Assembly: GCA_963931635.1 (NCBI GenBank)
Contig: OZ007034.1
Coordinates: forward strand, 2,277,506-2,341,505
DNA from: an uncultured Bacteroides sp.
Lineage (GTDB): Bacteria; Bacteroidota; Bacteroidia; Bacteroidales; UBA11471
Length of the DNA stretch: 64,000 nucleotides
Direction of reading: 5' to 3'
Part shown: positions 2,168 through 53,747 of the stretch, one piece after another
Numbering within the stretch: position 1 is the stretch's first letter
Layout: each line of letters begins with the position of its first letter
The notes under the pieces: model-generated
What the model was told of the DNA's origin: nothing
Database searches by the model: none
What the model saw: the letters and a program-made list of their open reading frames with translations, nothing else
Program-made: the position numbers and the translations under genes

Positions 2168-4351
2168 ATGAAGTTGAATTTACCTGAAATCCTGTGTGCC
2201 GTGGCGCTGACAGTGGGCGCGGCACCGCTCTCTTCGATGGAGGTCGACGACCTCTTTTCGGGAAAATACCGGGCGAAGTCGGTGGCCGGGATACGCCCCT
2301 CGGCCGATGGTGTGCATTATACCTGTCTCTCGCCCGACCGCACATGCATCGTGCGCTATGCCTATGCCACGGGCGAAGTGGTCGATACCCTGCTCGACGT
2401 GGCACGCGTGCCCGGGAAGCCGGTGCAGAGCATCTCGGGATATTCCTTTGGAGAAGACGAAGACCGTATGCTCATCTATACCGATGTGGAGATGATATAT
2501 CGCCGATCGTTCCGTGCCGCCTACTACTTCACGCGGGTGGGAAGCCATGCGTTGCAACCCTTGTCGGAGCAGTTTCCCAAGCAGCAGATTGCCACGCTGT
2601 CGCCCGACGGCACACGGGTGGCCTTTGTTCACGAAAACAATATTTACGTAAAGAATCTCCTCGACGGCAGCGAAGTGCAGATAACGCACGACGGCGAGAA
2701 AAACAAGATACTCAACGGCGTTACCGACTGGGTGTATGAAGAGGAGTTTGCCCAGACCCGCCTGATGGCCTGGTCGCCCGACAGTCGGGCATTGGCCTTT
2801 GTTCGTACCGACGAGAGCGACGTGCAGGAGTATCCCATGCAGCTTTTCTGTACCCCTTCGGGCCGTTACGACGCACCCGACGATGTCTATCCACGTTATG
2901 CCGGATTTAAATATCCCGTGGCCGGTGCCGACAACAGCCGCATCTCGTTCCAGGTATGGAAAGAAAACGACGCTGCCCCTCATGCCGTGGCTTTGCCGGT
3001 CGATGGTGAGACCTATCTCCCGGCCATCAACATAATACCGCGCACCGGCGAGTGGGTCGTTACGGCCCTCAACCGGTTGCAGAATCATATACGCCTGCTG
3101 GCCGTCGACATAGAAAAAGAGACCACTCGTCTCCTTTATGAAGATACGAGCGATACCTACATCAACGAAGAAGATATTACATCGGCCGTTTTCTATCCCG
3201 ACTGCTTCATGGCCTTCTCCGAGAAGACCGGCTACCGCCACATCTACCAGTATGGTTACGACGGCAAGCTGCAACGCACCGTTACCGTGGGAGAGTGGGA
3301 GGTTACCGATTATTACGGACGCGACGCCCGGGGCAACATCTATTACCAGTCGACCGAGGAAGGTCCTCTTTACCGCACGCTCTACTGCATCGACCGTAAA
3401 GGTAAACGCCGTAAACTCTCGACCCGGCCGGGAAACAACACCGCCTGGTTCAATCCCTCGTGTACCTATTACATCAGCCAGTACAGCAACGCCGTCACCC
3501 CTCCAGTCTATACCCTTCACGATGCCAAACGCCGTCGTGTGGTGCGTACCCTTGAAGACAATGCCGACTTCCCGGTTGAGGATTTTGTCAAGAAGGAATT
3601 TTTTACTTTCACGACTCCCGAAGGTGTCGAGCTCAACGGTTTCATGATGAAGCCGGCCGATTTCGACACAACTCGTCGCTATCCGGTCGTGATGATGCAG
3701 TATAGCGGCCCCGGGTCGCAGCAGGTACTCGATGCGTGGAGCTCGGCCGACTGGCAGCAGGTACTCGTGCCGCAAGGCTTCATCGTGGCCTGTGTCGACG
3801 GTCGCGGTACCGGTGCACGAGGCACGGAATTCCGCTGCTGCACCTATGGCCAGCTGGGGGTACTCGAAGCCCAGGACCAGATATCTGCCGCCCGCTATAT
3901 GGCATCGCTGCCCTATGTTGACGCCGGTCGCATAGCCATCTGGGGGTGGAGTTTCGGCGGATTTACCACCCTTATGTCGATGTCGATGAGCAGTGGCGTG
4001 TACAAGGCCGGTGTAGCCATTGCCCCGGTAACCGACTGGCGCTTCTACGACACGGTATATACCGAGCGGTACATGTCGACTCCGCAGCAGAACCGTGTCG
4101 GCTACGATGCCGCATCGCCCTTGTGTCGGGCAGCCTCTCTCTCGGGCAATCTCCTGATTGTTGCCGGTACGGCCGACGACAATGTGCATTACACCAACAC
4201 CCTGCGCTATATCAATGCCCTCGTGGCAGCCGACAAGCAGTTTGAAATGCAGATGTATACCGATCGCAACCACAGCATCTACGGGGGAAACTCCCGCCAG
4301 CACCTCTACAAGAAATTCATCGAATTTTTCCATCGCCAACTCTTGCTGTAG
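2168..4351 (+). CDS. dipeptidyl peptidase IV-like S9B serine peptidase
   Basis: Signal peptide, DWVYEEE motif, catalytic GWSFGG / DDNVH / NHSI triad. Confidence 0.92.
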   Translation: MKLNLPEILCAVALTVGAAPLSSMEVDDLFSGKYRAKSVAGIRPSADGVHYTCLSPDRTCIVRYAYATGEVVDTLLDVARVPGKPVQSISGYSFGEDEDRMLIYTDVEMIYRRSFRAAYYFTRVGSHALQPLSEQFPKQQIATLSPDGTRVAFVHENNIYVKNLLDGSEVQITHDGEKNKILNGVTDWVYEEEFAQTRLMAWSPDSRALAFVRTDESDVQEYPMQLFCTPSGRYDAPDDVYPRYAGFKYPVAGADNSRISFQVWKENDAAPHAVALPVDGETYLPAINIIPRTGEWVVTALNRLQNHIRLLAVDIEKETTRLLYEDTSDTYINEEDITSAVFYPDCFMAFSEKTGYRHIYQYGYDGKLQRTVTVGEWEVTDYYGRDARGNIYYQSTEEGPLYRTLYCIDRKGKRRKLSTRPGNNTAWFNPSCTYYISQYSNAVTPPVYTLHDAKRRRVVRTLEDNADFPVEDFVKKEFFTFTTPEGVELNGFMMKPADFDTTRRYPVVMMQYSGPGSQQVLDAWSSADWQQVLVPQGFIVACVDGRGTGARGTEFRCCTYGQLGVLEAQDQISAARYMASLPYVDAGRIAIWGWSFGGFTTLMSMSMSSGVYKAGVAIAPVTDWRFYDTVYTERYMSTPQQNRVGYDAASPLCRAASLSGNLLIVAGTADDNVHYTNTLRYINALVAADKQFEMQMYTDRNHSIYGGNSRQHLYKKFIEFFHRQLLL

Positions 4352-5248
4352 ATGAATGATTATGTTCGTTCTCCCTTAAACTATATTGGGGGAAAATATA
4401 AACTATTACCCCAAATATTACCTTTGTTCCCTCGCAAAATAAATACGTTTGTCGATTTATTTTGTGGGGGGTGTAATGTTGGTATTAATGTTCATGCACA
4501 TCGCGTAGTATTTAATGATATCCTCTCATATTTGATAGATTTGTATGTATCTCTAAAAGAAAATGATGTTCAGACAATATTGAACCATATAGACCATAGA
4601 ATAGAAACATTCAATCTTTCATTGACAAATGAGGTAGGATATAAAAAAATGCGCGATATATATAATCAAGATAGGAATCCTTTGGATTTATTTGTGTTAG
4701 TCGCGTATTCATTCAATCATCAGATTAGATTCAATAATTCTCATGAATTTAATAATCCATTTGGTAGAGATAGAAGTCGCTATAATGAGACGATGAAAAG
4801 AAATTTACGGCGATTCATTGAGCATATACAATCTTCCAATGCCTTATTTACATGCCAAAATTACGACAAATTTGATTTTTCGGTGTTGGGAGGGGACGAT
4901 TTTGTCTATTGTGATCCTCCATATTTGATTACGACGGGAACGTACAATGATGGAAAAAGAGGGTTTACCGGGTGGTCTGAACAGGAGGAAAAGTGTTTGT
5001 ATGAAATATTGAATGGATTGACAAAATCGGGAATTTCATTTGCTTTGTCTAATGTGTTGATTCATAAAGGGAAAGAGAATGATATATTGAGAAAGTGGAT
5101 AGCTGAAAATAATTATGTTATTCATTATCTGAATAGTGATTATGCCAACTCAAATTATCATACGAAAAATAGGCAAAAAACGTCTACCATAGAGGTGTTG
5201 ATTACTAACTACATTCCAAAGAAGATTCAATATGAGATATTTGGGTAA
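4352..5248 (+). CDS. N6-adenine DNA methyltransferase M1 (Dam/D12 family, like the C-terminal half of M.FokI)
   Basis: SPLNYIGGK, motif I FVDLFCGG, motif IV YCDPPY, C-terminal EVLITNY. Confidence 0.93.
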   Translation: MNDYVRSPLNYIGGKYKLLPQILPLFPRKINTFVDLFCGGCNVGINVHAHRVVFNDILSYLIDLYVSLKENDVQTILNHIDHRIETFNLSLTNEVGYKKMRDIYNQDRNPLDLFVLVAYSFNHQIRFNNSHEFNNPFGRDRSRYNETMKRNLRRFIEHIQSSNALFTCQNYDKFDFSVLGGDDFVYCDPPYLITTGTYNDGKRGFTGWSEQEEKCLYEILNGLTKSGISFALSNVLIHKGKENDILRKWIAENNYVIHYLNSDYANSNYHTKNRQKTSTIEVLITNYIPKKIQYEIFG

Positions 5249-6294
5249 TAAAGAAAATATTATACCTTATATATATTCTGTATTAGAAAGTAAAGGAATT
5301 GTTGGCAAAAGTTTTTTCGATTTTTTTTCGGGAACAACAAGTGTTGCAAAATTTTATAAGCGAAAAGGATATAAGGTATATACGTCAGATATGATGTATT
5401 TCTCATATTGTTTGCAAAAAGCATATATAGAGAATAATGAAACTCCTACGTTCAAAGCTCTTTGTCCTATAATTGGTAATGCAACATCTCGTCTTTTTGA
5501 TTCTCCGTTAGTTTCTGTATTAGAGTATTTGGACACTATACCATTGCGAGACGGTTTTATTTTTGAAAATTACACACCCGGAGGGACATCGTATTTGGCC
5601 TCTCCTCGTATGTATTTTATAGATGAGAACGGGAAAAAAAATAGATGCAATCAGACAACAAATAGAGTTATGGAATAGTGATGGGTTGTTGACTGATAAC
5701 GAGTATTTTATTCTGTTGTCTTGCCTAATAGAGACCGTTTCATTTTATGCAAATGTTTCCGGTGTATATGCGGCATTTCAAAAGAAATGGGATCCACGCG
5801 CTATTAAGACAATGAAACTTCGTCCGATTGAAATCATTAAAAATGATTATAGTAACGAAGTATATTATGGCGATAGCTTATCTTTATTAGATGATATAGA
5901 AGTCGATATTCTCTATATAGATCCTCCATATAATGAACGTCAATATGCGCCTAATTATCATTTATTAGAAACCATAGCATGCTATGATTCGCCAATAATT
6001 CGAGGTGTAACAGGTATGCGCGAATATTCTAAGCAGAAATCTTCATTTTGTAACGAAAAATCAGCATTTTCTGATTTAGATAGGATAGCTCGAATGGGAC
6101 ACTATAACTATTTGGTATTGAGTTATAATTCAGAAGGCATTATGAATAGAGAGGGTATAATAGATACTTTATCTCGATATGGTACGGTTTCATTAGAACA
6201 GTTTGAGTATTTACGCTTTAAAAGTAATAATAACGGTTCATCTCGTACTAAAAAGCATGTATATGAACAAATATATATATTGAAACGCTCGTGA
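5232..6294 (+). pseudogene. N6-adenine DNA methyltransferase M2 (like the N-terminal half of M.FokI), frameshifted at A8 5634-5641
   Basis: ORF 5232-5678 has MRYLGNK and motif I FDFFSGT; ORF 5623-6294 (+1 frame) has YIDPPYN..QY..NYHLLE; deleting one A joins them into one 353-aa protein (..RMYFIDENGKKIDAIR..). Confidence 0.88.
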
Positions 6295-7679
6295 AAAATC
6301 TTTGGATATTGACAGAAGAACGCCCTAAAAAAAACGTTCTGAGAACTATTTTTGAGTATTTTGCAAAAGACCAGAAATGTGGATTTTTCGGGTCTGAGTT
6401 GAGAATATTGCCTATTCTTGATAAGAATAGGTGTTTTTCGTTTGTATATGAAGTAATAGGTTTTAGATGCTCTAAAATAGATAAAGTATATATTAAGACT
6501 GTCTCTGGAAATTCCAGTTTTACAGATTTTCTCGTATTTTATCAAGAAGCACAACCACAAGCAAAAGATACTCCTATTTATGCAATAGAAGAGACTAAAA
6601 CGGATGATAAGGAAAGTCGGAATACCGGGGTTTACCAACGCTGCTCAAAATTTGTTTATATACACTATTATTATCCTCATACCAAGAAGATAATGCTGTA
6701 TAATTTACAAATCACACAGAAACAGGTTCCCACAGAAACATATATTTTTGGGACAAGATTGTTAATGACATTGGGAATTGAAATTTTAGGGAAAAAACTC
6801 GATAGGAATCTATTCAAACCCTTCCAAAGTATTGATGACGTTATCTGTTTTAAAAATAATATGAGACGTCCCCCAAAAGGAAATATTCCAATTGAAATAT
6901 TGAAATTCTCCGATAAGATAGAAATATCTGGACGCTTGTATAAATCGGGGGGCTTGGCTCATGATCCCAATATTGGTGCGTTGAGCATAATATCGGCCGT
7001 GTTGAGGTGTTTAGGGTGGAACGGTAGAATAGAAATTACATGCCATGGATTGGAACAAGAACATGTAGGTGCAGATAACAAGTTTGTTAAAATAGCCCAT
7101 ATTTTAGGACTTGAATTGCAAGGTTTGCAAATTCCTCCATGTAAAATGTTTGACACATATTGGCGATATGAAACACAAGGGGAAAAATTAGGTACGATAT
7201 TTATGCATATTGTCGTAGAAAATTTTACAACAGGATATTCTATATTTGAGAATCATGCTGGTTGTGAAAAAGGTTATTTCGTTACCTCAGACGGCCAACA
7301 TATTCCTTTGGCAAAATATGATGATAGAGAGGCATATAAAGCGGGAGATAAGTCTCGTATCATAGCTATACCCGATTTGGTTTTAGTGGATATTGAAGAG
7401 CACGAGATTATTACAATAGAAGGGAAAAAATACACAAATAGAAAAAAAGGTATAGCTGAATTATCTCTTTACAATAGTTTTGAGGAAAAATATTTAAAAA
7501 GATATTATGCCTCGTTTCGTGTTGTTAGGACAGTTGTTTTATATGGTGGAAAAGAAGAACAGATTGTTGAAATTGAAGTCGGGTTCCTGCTCAATGAGAA
7601 TGGTCGACTTGTTTTGGGAATAAAAGCCCCTCGATTGTTTCATCAAGCAATTAGAAATTTATTTGATTTTTGGGTATAA
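6291..7679 (+). CDS. Type IIS restriction endonuclease, BtsCI-like, two catalytic sites
   Basis: GTG start overlapping the M2 stop (GTGA); D79..E101-X14-Q116R117 and P361D362-X14-E377GK motifs; blocks LTEERPK, EETKTDDxESRNT, DPNIGA, NHAGC match my recollection of BtsCI; adjacent to two FokI-type MTases. Confidence 0.8.
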   Translation: MKNLWILTEERPKKNVLRTIFEYFAKDQKCGFFGSELRILPILDKNRCFSFVYEVIGFRCSKIDKVYIKTVSGNSSFTDFLVFYQEAQPQAKDTPIYAIEETKTDDKESRNTGVYQRCSKFVYIHYYYPHTKKIMLYNLQITQKQVPTETYIFGTRLLMTLGIEILGKKLDRNLFKPFQSIDDVICFKNNMRRPPKGNIPIEILKFSDKIEISGRLYKSGGLAHDPNIGALSIISAVLRCLGWNGRIEITCHGLEQEHVGADNKFVKIAHILGLELQGLQIPPCKMFDTYWRYETQGEKLGTIFMHIVVENFTTGYSIFENHAGCEKGYFVTSDGQHIPLAKYDDREAYKAGDKSRIIAIPDLVLVDIEEHEIITIEGKKYTNRKKGIAELSLYNSFEEKYLKRYYASFRVVRTVVLYGGKEEQIVEIEVGFLLNENGRLVLGIKAPRLFHQAIRNLFDFWV

Positions 7680-7710
7680 AAAAGGATAGGTCTCAGGCCT
7701 ATCCTTTTTT
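7678..7710. terminator. bidirectional intrinsic terminator
   Basis: AAAAAAGGATAGG-TCTCAGG-CCTATCCTTTTTT between convergent genes. Confidence 0.85.
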
Positions 7711-7730
7711 GCGTTATGTGTGGAGGGTGA

Positions 7731-9275
7731 TTACAGGGGCATGTTGCCGTGTTTCTTGGGCGGGTTGCTCTGGTTTTTGTTGGAGCACATGGCCAGGGCC
7801 TGAATCAGTTTCCAGCGGGTGTCGCGCGGCATGATGATTTCGTCGATGTATCCGCGTTCGGCAGCCCGGTAGGGATTCGAGAATTCCGATTCGTACTCTT
7901 TGATTTTCTCGGCTTTCTCCTCGGGAGTTGCTTTGCGGTAAAGAATATTGACGGCACCTTCGGCACCCATGACGGCAATTTCGGACTGCGGGTAGGCCAG
8001 ATTTACGTCGGCTCCCGTCGGTTTGCTTGACATCACGATGTAGGCTCCTCCGTAGGCTTTGCGGGTGATGAGGGTAACTTTGGGCACGGTGGCTTCGGCA
8101 TAGGCATAGACTATCTTGGCACCGTGTCGTATGATGCCGTTGTGCTCCTGTATGGTGCCGGGCAGGAAGCCGGGAACATCTTCGAAGGTAATGATGGGTA
8201 TGTTGAAGCAGTCGCAGAAGCGAATGAACCGTGCGGCTTTGTCGGAAGCGTCGATGTCGAGTACTCCGGCAAGGTAGGCCGGCTGGTTGGCCACGATACC
8301 CACCGAACGTCCGCCCAGGTGGGCGAAGCCGACCACGATGTTGGGGGCGAAGTGCGGCATGACCTCAAAGAAGTACTGGTCGTCGACAACCGGCTCGATG
8401 ATGTCTTTGATGTCGTAGGGCATGTTGGAGTCTTCGGGTATGACGGTCTGCAACTCCTCGACCTGGCGGTGTACATCGTCGGTGCAGGCTACGAGGGGGG
8501 CGTCTTCCATATTGTTTGAGGGGAGGAAGCTGAGCAGCTCCTTGATGTGCATGAGTGTCTCTTCTTCGGTGTCGTACATGAAGTGGGCAACACCGCTCTT
8601 GCTGCTGTGGGTGTAGGCTCCGCCCAGTTCTTCTTTACCCACCTCTTCGTGTGTAACAGCCTTTACCACGTCGGGACCGGTAATGAACATGTGGCTCTTC
8701 TCTTTCACCATGAAGATGAAGTCGGTGAGGGCAGGAGAGTAGCAGGCTCCGCCGGCGCAGGGGCCGAGAATGGCCGAGATTTGGGGTATGACACCCGATG
8801 CAATGGTGTTCTGATAGAAAATCGAGGCATATCCCGAGAGGCTGTTTACCCCTTCCTGTATGCGGGCACCTCCCGAGTCATTGAGGGCAATGATGGGAGC
8901 GCCGTTTTTGAGTGCGAGCTGTTGCACCTTCACGATTTTGGCGGCGTTGCTCTCGCTCAGCGAGCCGCCGTGGGCGGTGAAGTCGTAGGCATAGATAAAG
9001 ACCAGTCGTCCGTCGATTTTACCGTAACCGGTAACCATACCGTCGCCGGGTATCTGCTTCTTTTCCATGCCGAAGTGGGTGCAGCGGTGCGTTACAAACT
9101 TGTCGAGTTCGTTGAACGTGCCTTTGTCGAGCAGCATATCGATGCGTTCGCGGGCGGTCATGCGTCCCGACTCGTGTTGTTTCTCAATCTTTTCAATGCC
9201 TCCGCCTTGTGAGGCTTTCTTGTCGAGGGCTTCAAAGGCCTCGTATATTTTTTCTCTTTCCATTGTTTTAGTCAT
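7731..9275 (-). CDS. acyl-CoA (propionyl/methylmalonyl-CoA) carboxylase, carboxyltransferase subunit
   Basis: DSGGARIQEG, GPCAGGA, RKAYGGAY, C-terminal KKHGNMPL. Confidence 0.93.
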   Translation of the reverse strand: MTKTMEREKIYEAFEALDKKASQGGGIEKIEKQHESGRMTARERIDMLLDKGTFNELDKFVTHRCTHFGMEKKQIPGDGMVTGYGKIDGRLVFIYAYDFTAHGGSLSESNAAKIVKVQQLALKNGAPIIALNDSGGARIQEGVNSLSGYASIFYQNTIASGVIPQISAILGPCAGGACYSPALTDFIFMVKEKSHMFITGPDVVKAVTHEEVGKEELGGAYTHSSKSGVAHFMYDTEEETLMHIKELLSFLPSNNMEDAPLVACTDDVHRQVEELQTVIPEDSNMPYDIKDIIEPVVDDQYFFEVMPHFAPNIVVGFAHLGGRSVGIVANQPAYLAGVLDIDASDKAARFIRFCDCFNIPIITFEDVPGFLPGTIQEHNGIIRHGAKIVYAYAEATVPKVTLITRKAYGGAYIVMSSKPTGADVNLAYPQSEIAVMGAEGAVNILYRKATPEEKAEKIKEYESEFSNPYRAAERGYIDEIIMPRDTRWKLIQALAMCSNKNQSNPPKKHGNMPL

Positions 9276-50823: not shown

Positions 50824-51705
50824 TTATTTTAACTTTATTTTTTTGTCGAAGTGGTTGCGTATGCCGTTGGCGGCCAGATTCATGATGAGAACGATGACGA
50901 TGAGGACAAAAGCCGTCCCGTAAGCAATGGGTTCTTGGGCTTCGATGTCGGTTCCACTGGTGGCTACGACGTAAAGGTGATAGGGCAGGGCCATGCATTG
51001 GTCAAAAATCCCCGTGGGTAATTTGGGTAAAAAATAGGCCGCGCAAGTGAATAGGATAGGAGCTGTTTCGCCCGAAACTCGTCCCAGAGACAAAATCAAT
51101 CCTGTTATGACACGGGGAGTGGCCATCGGAAGCAGTACATTCCAGATGGTCTGGGCTTTTGTGGCACCCAAAGCAAGGCTTCCTTCTCTGAAGTGGTTCG
51201 GAATGTCTTTGAATGTTTCTTCGGTCGTGCGAATAATGATGGGAAGTGCCAACAGTCCCAATGTAAGGGAGCCAGCCAAAATGCTGTCGCCGAAATCTAA
51301 CCGATTGACAAAAAATGCCATTCCGAAGAGGCCGAATACAATCGACGGTATGCCGGCCAAGTTGTTGGTCATGGTCCGTATGAAATTGACCAGTTTCCCC
51401 GAACGGGCATATTCACTCATGTATATGCCGCTCATGATTCCTATGGGAAACGCAAATATGGCGCTGCCAATCATCAAATAAAATGTCCCGACGATGGCCG
51501 GCCAGATTCCTCCCTTGGTCATGCCGTCGCTGGGAGCTTGGGTGATAAAGTCCCAGTTGATGACACCAAACCCTTTGATGAGGATAAATCCCAAGATAAA
51601 AAAGAGTATGACGACAATGCTGTAACTGAAAATCCGGAATAAAGCGAATGCCGAATTTTGAGCTAATTTCCTCCGTTTGATAAAAGAGGTGGTGTTGAAA
51701 CTCAT
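50824..51705 (-). CDS. pstA: phosphate ABC transporter permease
   Basis: GIPSIVFGLFG, REGSLALGA, GETAP. Confidence 0.95.
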   Translation of the reverse strand: MSFNTTSFIKRRKLAQNSAFALFRIFSYSIVVILFFILGFILIKGFGVINWDFITQAPSDGMTKGGIWPAIVGTFYLMIGSAIFAFPIGIMSGIYMSEYARSGKLVNFIRTMTNNLAGIPSIVFGLFGMAFFVNRLDFGDSILAGSLTLGLLALPIIIRTTEETFKDIPNHFREGSLALGATKAQTIWNVLLPMATPRVITGLILSLGRVSGETAPILFTCAAYFLPKLPTGIFDQCMALPYHLYVVATSGTDIEAQEPIAYGTAFVLIVIVLIMNLAANGIRNHFDKKIKLK

Positions 51706-51709
51706 AATA

Positions 51710-52903
51710 CTATTTTTTTATTTTGTTGCGTGCCGAAACGATTTCCACGCAGGAGTTGATGAACAATGTGATAAAGAATAGAATGACACCGAGCAAGAAC
51801 AGGGATTGGTAATGGGCCCCTCCGGCCGGGGCTTCTCCCAATTCGGCTGCAATCGTAGCGGGGATAGTACGCAGCGGTTCCATGATCGATGTCGGTATGA
51901 CCGCCGCATTGCCGGTCACCATAAGCACGGCCATTGTCTCGCCGATGGCGCGGCCTATGCCCAGAACGACACCTGAGGTGATACCCGATATCGAAAACGG
52001 TATGACGACCTTGTATATGGTTTGCCATTGTGAGGAACCGAGTGCCAAACTGGCTTCTCGCATGGATCTTGGGCAACTGCGCATGGCATCTTCGGCAACG
52101 GTGATGATGGTAGGCAGAGCCATGATGGCCAGAACGATGCTTCCGGCCAGTCCGGATTCTCCGACAGGGAGGTCGAAGACGTTTTGCAGGGAAGGAACGA
52201 TGACGGCCAATCCGAAAAATCCATATACGACAGAAGGTATGCCGTTGAGAAGTTCGATAATCGGTTTCAATATTTTTCTGATTTTGGGATTGGCCACTTC
52301 TGACATGTATATGGCTATGGAAAGCCCGAAAGGAAGAGCTATCAGTATGGCAAAGAAACTTACCCAAAGAGTTCCGTACAGCAATGGCAGGATTCCGAAA
52401 ATGGGTGACGGTGTGGCGGTGGGGTACCATTCTTTGCCCAACAAGACATCTTTTACCGGAATGTTTTTGTCTTCAATCAAGCGTATGCCGGGTTCGTTTT
52501 GAACCAGGTTTTTGGGGACAAAAGCAATCATGCCCTTTTCTTGCCGAATGATGTCTCCTATTTTATTCCCCGCATATTCATATTCGGCTCCGAGTTCTTC
52601 TTCGGAATAATATTGGGACAAATCTTCGAGCCGGAATGTTTGCACGGGAATGTCTTCGCCTCCCAACTCTTTCCAGTTGGGTATTTCTTCATCGAAGAGG
52701 TTTTTTATCTGCTCTGCACTTAACGATTTGATTTTGTTTTCTTTGTTGACGGCGAGCGTATATCCGTCTTCGATTATCGGATTGTTGAAGAGACCGACTG
52801 CTTCGGTAAACAAGAAACCAATAATCAACAAAATGGCCGCGCTGGTTACAAAGCCGCTGACGGTAAACAACCGCGTTGCAATATAGTCAATCCATTTTTT
52901 CAT
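51710..52903 (-). CDS. pstC: phosphate ABC transporter permease with PstS-like periplasmic insertion
   Basis: GIPSVVYGFFG, REASLALG, RAIGETMAV; about 100-aa soluble insert after TM1. Confidence 0.93.
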   Translation of the reverse strand: MKKWIDYIATRLFTVSGFVTSAAILLIIGFLFTEAVGLFNNPIIEDGYTLAVNKENKIKSLSAEQIKNLFDEEIPNWKELGGEDIPVQTFRLEDLSQYYSEEELGAEYEYAGNKIGDIIRQEKGMIAFVPKNLVQNEPGIRLIEDKNIPVKDVLLGKEWYPTATPSPIFGILPLLYGTLWVSFFAILIALPFGLSIAIYMSEVANPKIRKILKPIIELLNGIPSVVYGFFGLAVIVPSLQNVFDLPVGESGLAGSIVLAIMALPTIITVAEDAMRSCPRSMREASLALGSSQWQTIYKVVIPFSISGITSGVVLGIGRAIGETMAVLMVTGNAAVIPTSIMEPLRTIPATIAAELGEAPAGGAHYQSLFLLGVILFFITLFINSCVEIVSARNKIKK

Positions 52904-52913
52904 ATAGAATTTT

Positions 52914-53747
52914 TTATAATGTGGCGGGAATGAATCCTAATTCCAAAGAAATGTTTTCGGCCTTTTCTGATGTGATGAATTGTATATAAGGACGGACTTT
53001 TTCTTCGTCTTTTTTATTGTAATAATAGTAAAGCGGCCGCACGATGGGATATTTTTTTGCCCGGGCGTTTTCTATCGACGGGTGAACATAGTTCTTTCCA
53101 CCGTCGTATGATACGTTGATGGCTTTAACAAAAGGGTTGAGGTAGGCCATGCCCACATAACCGATGGCTCCTTTGGTTTGTCTTATCGATTGTATGATGG
53201 CTCCTGTTGCCGGCATGGAAAGGATATTGTTGGTGTAGTTCTTGTTTTCCAGCACGCTTTCTTTGAAAAATTCGTATGTGCCCGATGAGGTTTCCCGTGA
53301 ATATACGATGATTTTGGCATCGGGGCCGCCCACTTCTTCCCAGTTGGTTATTTTCCCCCGAAAAATGGCCTCCAATTCTTCTCGCGTGAGATTGTTGACC
53401 GGATTTGACGGATTGACGATTACTGCCAATGCATCGTAAGCTACAATGACTTCGTTGACCTCGGTGCTGTTTTGTTTCAGTTTCATTTTCTCTCCGAATT
53501 TGATGCGCCGGGAAGACATGGCAATATCGGTCGTCCCTTCCATAATGGCCGAAATGCCCACTCCGCTGCCACCACCTGTGACGGTGACCGATGTATTTGG
53601 ATATTCGTGCATGAATGTTTCGGCCCATTTTTGGGTGAGAGGAAGAACCGTGTCGCTGCCTTTGATGCGTTGTGAAGCAGATGGTTGAGAAAAGATGAGG
53701 AACAACGGGAGAATCAAAAGAATGTTTTTATACATATTATTCGGCAT
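52914..53747 (-). CDS. pstS: phosphate-binding protein
   Basis: GSDTV, GGGSGVG, RETSSGT, YPIVRPL; start may be the second Met (53735). Confidence 0.94.
   Translation of the reverse strand: MPNNMYKNILLILPLFLIFSQPSASQRIKGSDTVLPLTQKWAETFMHEYPNTSVTVTGGGSGVGISAIMEGTTDIAMSSRRIKFGEKMKLKQNSTEVNEVIVAYDALAVIVNPSNPVNNLTREELEAIFRGKITNWEEVGGPDAKIIVYSRETSSGTYEFFKESVLENKNYTNNILSMPATGAIIQSIRQTKGAIGYVGMAYLNPFVKAINVSYDGGKNYVHPSIENARAKKYPIVRPLYYYYNKKDEEKVRPYIQFITSEKAENISLELGFIPATL

Follow-up and report, generated by a model that had tools for sequence, protein, structure and literature searches.

An eighth A that splits a methyltransferase gene of a BtsCI-like type IIS restriction-modification locus is probably a one-base homopolymer error of the record

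Genes and features of the locus

We analysed a stretch of 64,000 nucleotides (the window) of contig OZ007034.1, from the genome of an uncultured Bacteroides sp. (G000). In it, two methyltransferase genes (M1 and M2) are followed by a nuclease gene. The features are as follows.

4352..5248, plus strand: M1, an intact D12-class (Dam-family) N6-adenine DNA methyltransferase of 298 aa (ORF)
5232..6294, plus strand: M2, a second D12-class methyltransferase (ORF pieces with complementary Pfam and PADLOC profile ranges)
5634..5641, plus strand: A8 tract, which is A7 in all the other assemblies examined (X1, X5, X6, X11 and L026)
6291..7679, plus strand: type IIS-like restriction endonuclease, intact, 462 aa (PADLOC REase_II PDLC03445, E 3.6e-68)
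7677..7711, plus strand: terminator-like hairpin with a T run (16 pairs, 5 of them G-C), directly past the nuclease stop

M1 matched PF02086 with an E-value of 1.6e-43 (149.7 bits, profile positions 1–244) and TIGR00571 (dam) with an E-value of 5.4e-51. Both M1 and M2 scored above the gathering score of PF02086, as D12-class N6-adenine methyltransferases do, and DPPY, which we take to be motif IV, is seen in the translations of M1 and of the C-terminal piece of M2. On the fused PADLOC model PDLC03287, M1 aligned to positions 360–642 of 646 (E 5e-112) and M2, in two pieces, to positions 1–122 and 120–338. This model is presumably of the M.FokI/M.BtsCI type, judging from its length. By these profile ranges M1 corresponds to the C-terminal half, and M2 to the N-terminal half, of the fused two-domain methylases.

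The GTG start of the nuclease overlaps the TGA stop of M2 as GTGA, in line with the original prediction made from the sequence alone. The REase_II model that identified the nuclease bears no enzyme name. No family was returned for this protein by NCBIfam, and a search of the PDB by sequence gave no solved relative, the only matches being three weak ones to TPR proteins (best E 0.05). Two sets of catalytic motifs were found in it, D93-X6-E100-X15-Q116 R117 and P361 D362-X14-E377-G378-K379. We aligned 27 sequences, that is the query and 26 full-length relatives with 24–63% identity, taken from 150 listed. E100, R117 and D362 were invariant, and Q116, P361 and E377 were at least 90% conserved; D93 was not invariant. 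M1 and the nuclease had been described as intact, and the ORFs of 298 and 462 aa bear this out, the nuclease having every conserved catalytic residue. One homologue, P0005, is 590 aa long, against 462–466 aa for the rest, and may be a fusion or a read-through call.

The three genes lie on a 3.3-kb island of low G+C content (4352–7680; 31–37% G+C versus 52–60% in the flanks). The island starts right after the stop (TAG) of an upstream 727-aa ORF, together with the ATG of M1 (4349–4354); by eye, this ORF resembles a dipeptidyl peptidase. No integrase, repeat or tRNA was noticed at the edges of the island when the sequence was read. The hairpin at 7677–7711 stands between convergent genes, and is common to the nuclease gene and a convergent 514-aa ORF (7677–7731). 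A second terminator-like hairpin (6409–6433, 11 pairs followed by TTTTT) lies ∼120 bases inside the nuclease ORF. A scan for the terminator consensus found 3 sites versus 2.1 expected, which is near chance.

BtsCI-like features of the system

According to PMC2831314, BtsCI (GGATG 2/0) is a monomer having two catalytic sites, D121/E128/R145 and D388/E403/E405. The same text gives two predicted isoschizomers, Cup_ORF1489 of Campylobacter upsaliensis (463 aa) and Nfl_ORF1032 of Neisseria flavescens (472 aa), each of them with two separate methylases that correspond to the halves of M.BtsCI, and puts the identity between M.BtsCI and M.FokI at 62%. In M.FokI, a tandem methylase, GGATG is the target of the N domain and CATCC that of the C domain (extracts of PMC3985630).

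The N-terminal site of the BtsCI-like (Mva1269I/BsmI) group, (S/K)(D/E)-X6-E-Xn-QR, is present in the nuclease described here as K92 D93-X6-E100-X15-Q116 R117; at the position of D93 the text of PMC2831314 allows D or E. The spacer is printed there as X14, but the paper's own residue numbers, E128 and R145, give X15, as here. The C-terminal site of the group, PD-Xn-EX(K/E), is present as P361 D362-X14-E377-G378-K379. D93/E100/R117 and D362/E377/K379 are therefore spaced in the same way as D121/E128/R145 and D388/E403/E405 in the published description of BtsCI. The likeness to Cup_ORF1489 and Nfl_ORF1032, as far as extracts of the same paper describe them, extends to the size of the nuclease (∼462 aa), to the two separate methylases matching the N- and C-terminal halves, and to the C-terminal motif PD-Xn-EXK. 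The present locus differs from BtsCI in its gene order, M(C-half-like), M(N-half-like), R, and from the group in its host, a Bacteroidales-type gut bacterium. As in the case of M.FokI, M2 and M1 together cover one fused methylase model, which agrees with the earlier proposal that two methylases serve an asymmetric site. However, the methylase halves are separate genes here, and the nuclease has no similarity to the FokI chains in the PDB.

We also observed that no 5-mer of the genome is more strongly under-represented than GGATG/CATCC (O/E 0.35, z −59, 1597 sites). This strong genome-wide avoidance, a further point of likeness to BtsCI, supports the BtsCI-like assignment, and it shows pressure from some GGATG enzyme, not necessarily from this nuclease. 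We have provisionally filed the system as BtsCI-like on the basis of its architecture and motifs, R.BtsCI being compared through its published description. The locus would then be a complete type IIS restriction-modification operon of the BtsCI-like kind, with nothing out of the ordinary, located on a low-GC island. Each of the two methylases, M1 and M2, would modify one strand of an asymmetric site, for which GGATG/CATCC is the probable candidate, and the 462-aa nuclease would have two different catalytic sites, one per strand. We infer GGATG as the recognition site, and likewise one strand per methylase; the latter fits the coverage of the 646-position fused model PDLC03287 by M2 (1–338) and M1 (360–642). 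With this assignment, the BtsCI-like group gains a complete member with a split methylase.

The 3328-base island has a single GGATG, at 6602 (6602–6606). No other D12-class methylase was found in the genome. Among the 6-mers, the ten most under-represented are the CTNNAG hexamers, all 16 of them (10 strand-symmetric classes, including CTCGAG, CTGCAG, CTATAG, CTACAG and CTTAAG), with O/E of 0.10–0.37. We know of no enzyme with CTNNAG specificity; the depletion suggests strong past or present restriction pressure on these sites.

M2 is split at the A8 tract

The window reads GGG at 5631–5633, eight A at 5634–5641 and T at 5642, with the coordinates that the original prediction had given for this tract. 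The N-terminal ORF of M2 (5232–5678, 148 aa, ending in ...ENGKKNRCNQTTNRVME) passes through the A8 tract and stops 37 bases past it. The C-terminal ORF (5623–6294, 223 aa) is in the next frame and starts with MRTGKKIDAIR; its ATG at 5623 sits 11 bases 5′ of the tract. On PF02086 (253 positions, cut-off 22 bits), the N-terminal piece covers positions 1–67 (50.3 bits) and the C-terminal piece positions 97–248 (73.6 bits). On PADLOC PDLC03257 (343 positions) the two pieces cover 13–130 and 127–341, respectively. NCBIfam returned no family for either piece. As both pieces belong to one family and cover complementary ranges of it, M2 is a single gene that has been cut once, as the original prediction had described. 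When read with seven A, M2 is one protein of 353 aa.

Other assemblies carry seven A

We compared the tract with that of other assemblies. All 24 runs listed as carrying the sequence are assembled contigs, and those of four runs from four studies were aligned to window positions 3800–8200. The runs, whose sequencing platforms are unrecorded, were thus compared as contigs and not as raw reads. Contigs follow the majority path, and rare variants, such as a minority A8 subpopulation, are lost from them. No RNA run was listed as carrying the sequence; X20, a putative RNA run, had 0.22 of the sampled sequence words. In all four runs (4/4, from 4 studies), one letter was left out at 5634, giving A7, at the full depth of the contig.

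X1: one letter left out at 5634, depth 21.2/21.2; all 4401 bases in one piece, 0 other differences
X5: one letter left out at 5634, depth 16.1/16.1; 2 substitutions
X6: one letter left out at 5634, depth 10/10; 27 substitutions
X11: one letter left out at 5634, depth 6.5/6.5; stretch covered in three pieces

X1, which is identical over 4.4 kb except for the tract, was flagged as a possible source sample of this genome. In all four runs of the study of X1, 0.98 of the sampled sequence words were present, and none of these runs contained 1.00 of them; the words that include A8 would appear to be absent from all four. Of the 7 long homopolymers in the aligned stretch, among them a T8 (5321) and a further A8 (6327), only the one at 5634 differs in the runs. 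Since the other six were unchanged in every run, the run contigs do not generally shorten 8-base runs.

A metagenome collection was also scanned with a pattern consisting of the two tract flanks with 5–11 free bases between them. The pattern matched one contig, L026, which reads GGG-A7-T; over 2456 bases aligned with the window its identity is 99.47%, with 12 mismatches and 1 gap. A7 was therefore present in all five independent assemblies examined (the contigs of the four runs, and L026), and A8 in this record only.

The out-of-frame A8 state is private to this record. No second out-of-frame allele was seen among the five other assemblies, and no tract-length polymorphism among strains that are 2 to 27 substitutions apart over 4.4 kb. 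ON and OFF tract lengths did not alternate across strains or assemblies, as they do in a phase-variable gene, all five others having A7. The original prediction had held that reads uniformly showing A7 would mean an assembly error. This outcome has been nearly reached; the uniformity was found in five of five assemblies, and these are contigs, not reads.

M2 is in frame in relatives

A search of a protein collection with the 223-aa piece as query gave 2030 proteins at E 1e-10 or better. The best match, P0121 (353 aa, 12 member sequences), reads ...FIDENGKKIDAIRQQ... and is exactly the A7 reading of M2. The predicted ENGKKIDAIR reading, with an intact 353-aa methyltransferase, thus exists as a protein. 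Among the 120 matches listed, 110 are 336–374 aa long and 10 are 226–298 aa long. We considered whether the homologues of 226–227 aa might represent recurrent breaks at the tract. Of eight short forms examined, five begin upstream of the tract position, their first residue being the conserved Met of PRMYF. These were rejected as tract breaks and are truncated gene calls; any upstream truncation gives the same start.

The nuclease was present in 5 of the 61 genomes searched, G000 included. It is full length in G005 (87% identity) and in G002 (66% identity), a remnant in G006, and a weak match with stops in G034 (E 9.6e-4). In the same-genus orthologues, G005 and G002, M2 is an intact ORF of 353 aa, whose stop overlaps the nuclease start by 4 bases. 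The tract position reads AAC GGA AAG AGG ATT in G005 and AAT GGA AAG GTT ATA in G002. No homopolymer is thus kept in these relatives, as a repeat would be in a phase-variable gene, which makes the run of A a lineage-specific accident of two AAA lysine codons. A check of tract length in homologues had been suggested for the switch, and the two orthologues give it no backing.

A search of 401 genomes of the order with P0121 gave matches in 28 at E 1e-40 or better, G000 included. M2 is full length and without stops in 24 of the 27 other genomes; in three of the 24 it is fused, with open frames of 624–638 aa. The three broken copies, in G006 (at a contig start, with 1 TGA), G223 (10 stops) and G263, are decayed remnants and not tract variants. 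In G263 (L056, 1128–2799, minus strand), M1 is split into pieces of 61 and 248 aa, M2 is cut after PRMY, and a 109-aa ORF joins the C-terminal part of M2 to the C-terminus of the nuclease, by an internal deletion. A match over positions 1–129 in this genome had been a candidate for a tract frameshift. It was rejected as a deletion remnant, with M1 broken and the C-termini of M2 and the nuclease fused. Decay in this family also removes nuclease sequence (G263 and G006), a picture different from the clean lesion of one base in the present record. The out-of-frame state is not conserved, as it would be in a programmed frameshift; 24 of 27 genomes have M2 in one frame, and 110 of the 120 listed proteins are 336–374 aa long.

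Genome-wide scan for homopolymer frameshifts

We scanned the whole genome for long homopolymers at which a one-base change merges two long frames. This flagged 49 of 1384 long homopolymers, versus 52 of 3000 sites drawn at random. Such a flag is noisy, as frames also merge at A-rich gene junctions. From the 48 flagged sites other than that in M2, 22 were picked for long frames on both sides, leaving out 26, and both halves were compared with Pfam. A family was found on both halves at 6 sites, on one half at 6 and on neither at 10. At no site among the 22 was a single Pfam family divided between the halves, a result that bears on the 6 sites with a family on both halves; these are pairs of complete genes, either different or duplicated. 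Within the limits of this weak test, homopolymer frameshifts are not generally frequent in the assembly, and M2 is singular. A pair of adjoining ORFs was also seen in the window (50827–52936, minus strand), each with a complete BPD_transp_1 domain, the first also matching PBP_like_2. They meet at a T7 run (51713–51719) and are separate genes, not a frameshift.

Origin of the eighth A

The aforementioned data argue against a switch, and the A8 is best treated as a probable one-base record error, or at most as a private lesion. An intact nuclease and an intact M1 beside a single one-base lesion point to an artefact or a very recent event and not to decay. We consider it probable that the assembly has miscounted this homopolymer by one A. 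The natural M2 allele would have seven A and would encode an intact 353-aa N6-adenine methyltransferase; the eighth A would be a length miscall in an assembly of a single 2.85-Mb contig, and no switch would exist. Among the explanations originally offered, homopolymer error is now the one with the best support, four of four runs and L026 having A7. Long-read homopolymer indel errors, as dealt with in extracts of PMC12007338 (Kastor) and PMC8011154 (Homopolish), are similar in that a one-base error splits a conserved gene in a one-contig assembly, and M2 is likewise in frame in other assemblies and in homologues. The present case differs from these in that the 22 sites tested yielded no further error of this type. 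In practical terms this amounts to a correction; M2 is to be read as an intact 353-aa methylase, the record probably having a one-base homopolymer error.

The A8 might instead be a real and recent +1 insertion, private to the strain or population, either as a first step of decay or selected in culture. M2 would then be dead and only the strand of M1 methylated, which requires that hemimethylation suffices or that the nuclease is poorly expressed. We regard this as unlikely, although several observations speak for it. A singular lesion in an otherwise clean assembly, whose 22 tested sites gave no further obvious homopolymer frameshift, leaves room for a real mutation. The family does decay, with broken copies in 3 of the 27 other genomes (G006, G223 and G263), and as there is no other D12-class methylase in the genome to serve as a backup, the lesion would have to be tolerated or very young. 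However, A8 was found in 0 of 5 other assemblies, one of which is identical over 4.4 kb apart from the tract, and the four runs of the likely source study all lack some of the words. Moreover, a dead M2 beside a nuclease with all its catalytic residues, in a genome with 1597 GGATG sites, would be expected to be under strong counter-selection. On balance we infer an error, and not a private mutation, as the origin of the extra A.

The original prediction had favoured a phase-variable switch. In such a reading, slipped-strand mispairing turns A7 into A8 (OFF) with appreciable frequency, nuclease translation is uncoupled as well, and the result is a reversible, safe shut-down with an altered methylome. 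A true switch would be unusual, in that a gut Bacteroidales-type bacterium would phase-vary one strand-specific type IIS methylase in step with the coupled nuclease. A frameshifting homopolymer does lie in a methylase ORF, which is ON in five assemblies and OFF in one, and the overlap of the M2 stop with the nuclease start is common to this locus and both orthologues (G005 and G002). Homopolymer-driven switching of restriction-modification genes is known in Helicobacter and Campylobacter. We nevertheless find a switch very unlikely. The single OFF observation comes from the record under suspicion, and an out-of-frame allele was not met a second time. With 7 bases the tract is short; it is built from two AAA lysine codons, and is replaced by AAG AGG in G005 and by AAG GTT in G002. 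Its length is invariant among strains 2 to 27 substitutions apart (4.4 kb), 24 of 27 genomes have M2 in frame, and the homologues of 226–227 aa are calls from the Met of PRMYF and not tract breaks. Phasevarions, as described in extracts of PMC5909438, PMC7383803 and PMC4209511, also have a repeat in a methylase ORF whose length sets the frame. However, those repeats are long, conserved and polymorphic, whereas the tract here has 7 bases, is not conserved and is invariant in five assemblies.

It is highly improbable that the A7 run is a low-rate slippage site and that the assembly caught a population in which A8 cells prevail. Were such a population real, the frameshift would stop M2 translation 600 bases short of the overlapping nuclease start and so lower both methylase and nuclease, which would give this two-methylase type IIS system a self-protecting OFF state and a hemimethylated GGATG methylome from M1 alone. 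Finally, an A8 run is slippery in principle, and the ATG at 5623 opens the second frame 11 bases before the tract, but a real and expressed A8, through programmed transcriptional or ribosomal slippage or through a two-chain enzyme restarted at this ATG, is extremely improbable and not needed, the population allele being in frame; programmed frameshifts keep the out-of-frame state, whereas the in-frame state is the rule here (24 of 27 genomes and 110 of 120 listed proteins), and the tract itself is missing from the orthologues in G005 and G002.
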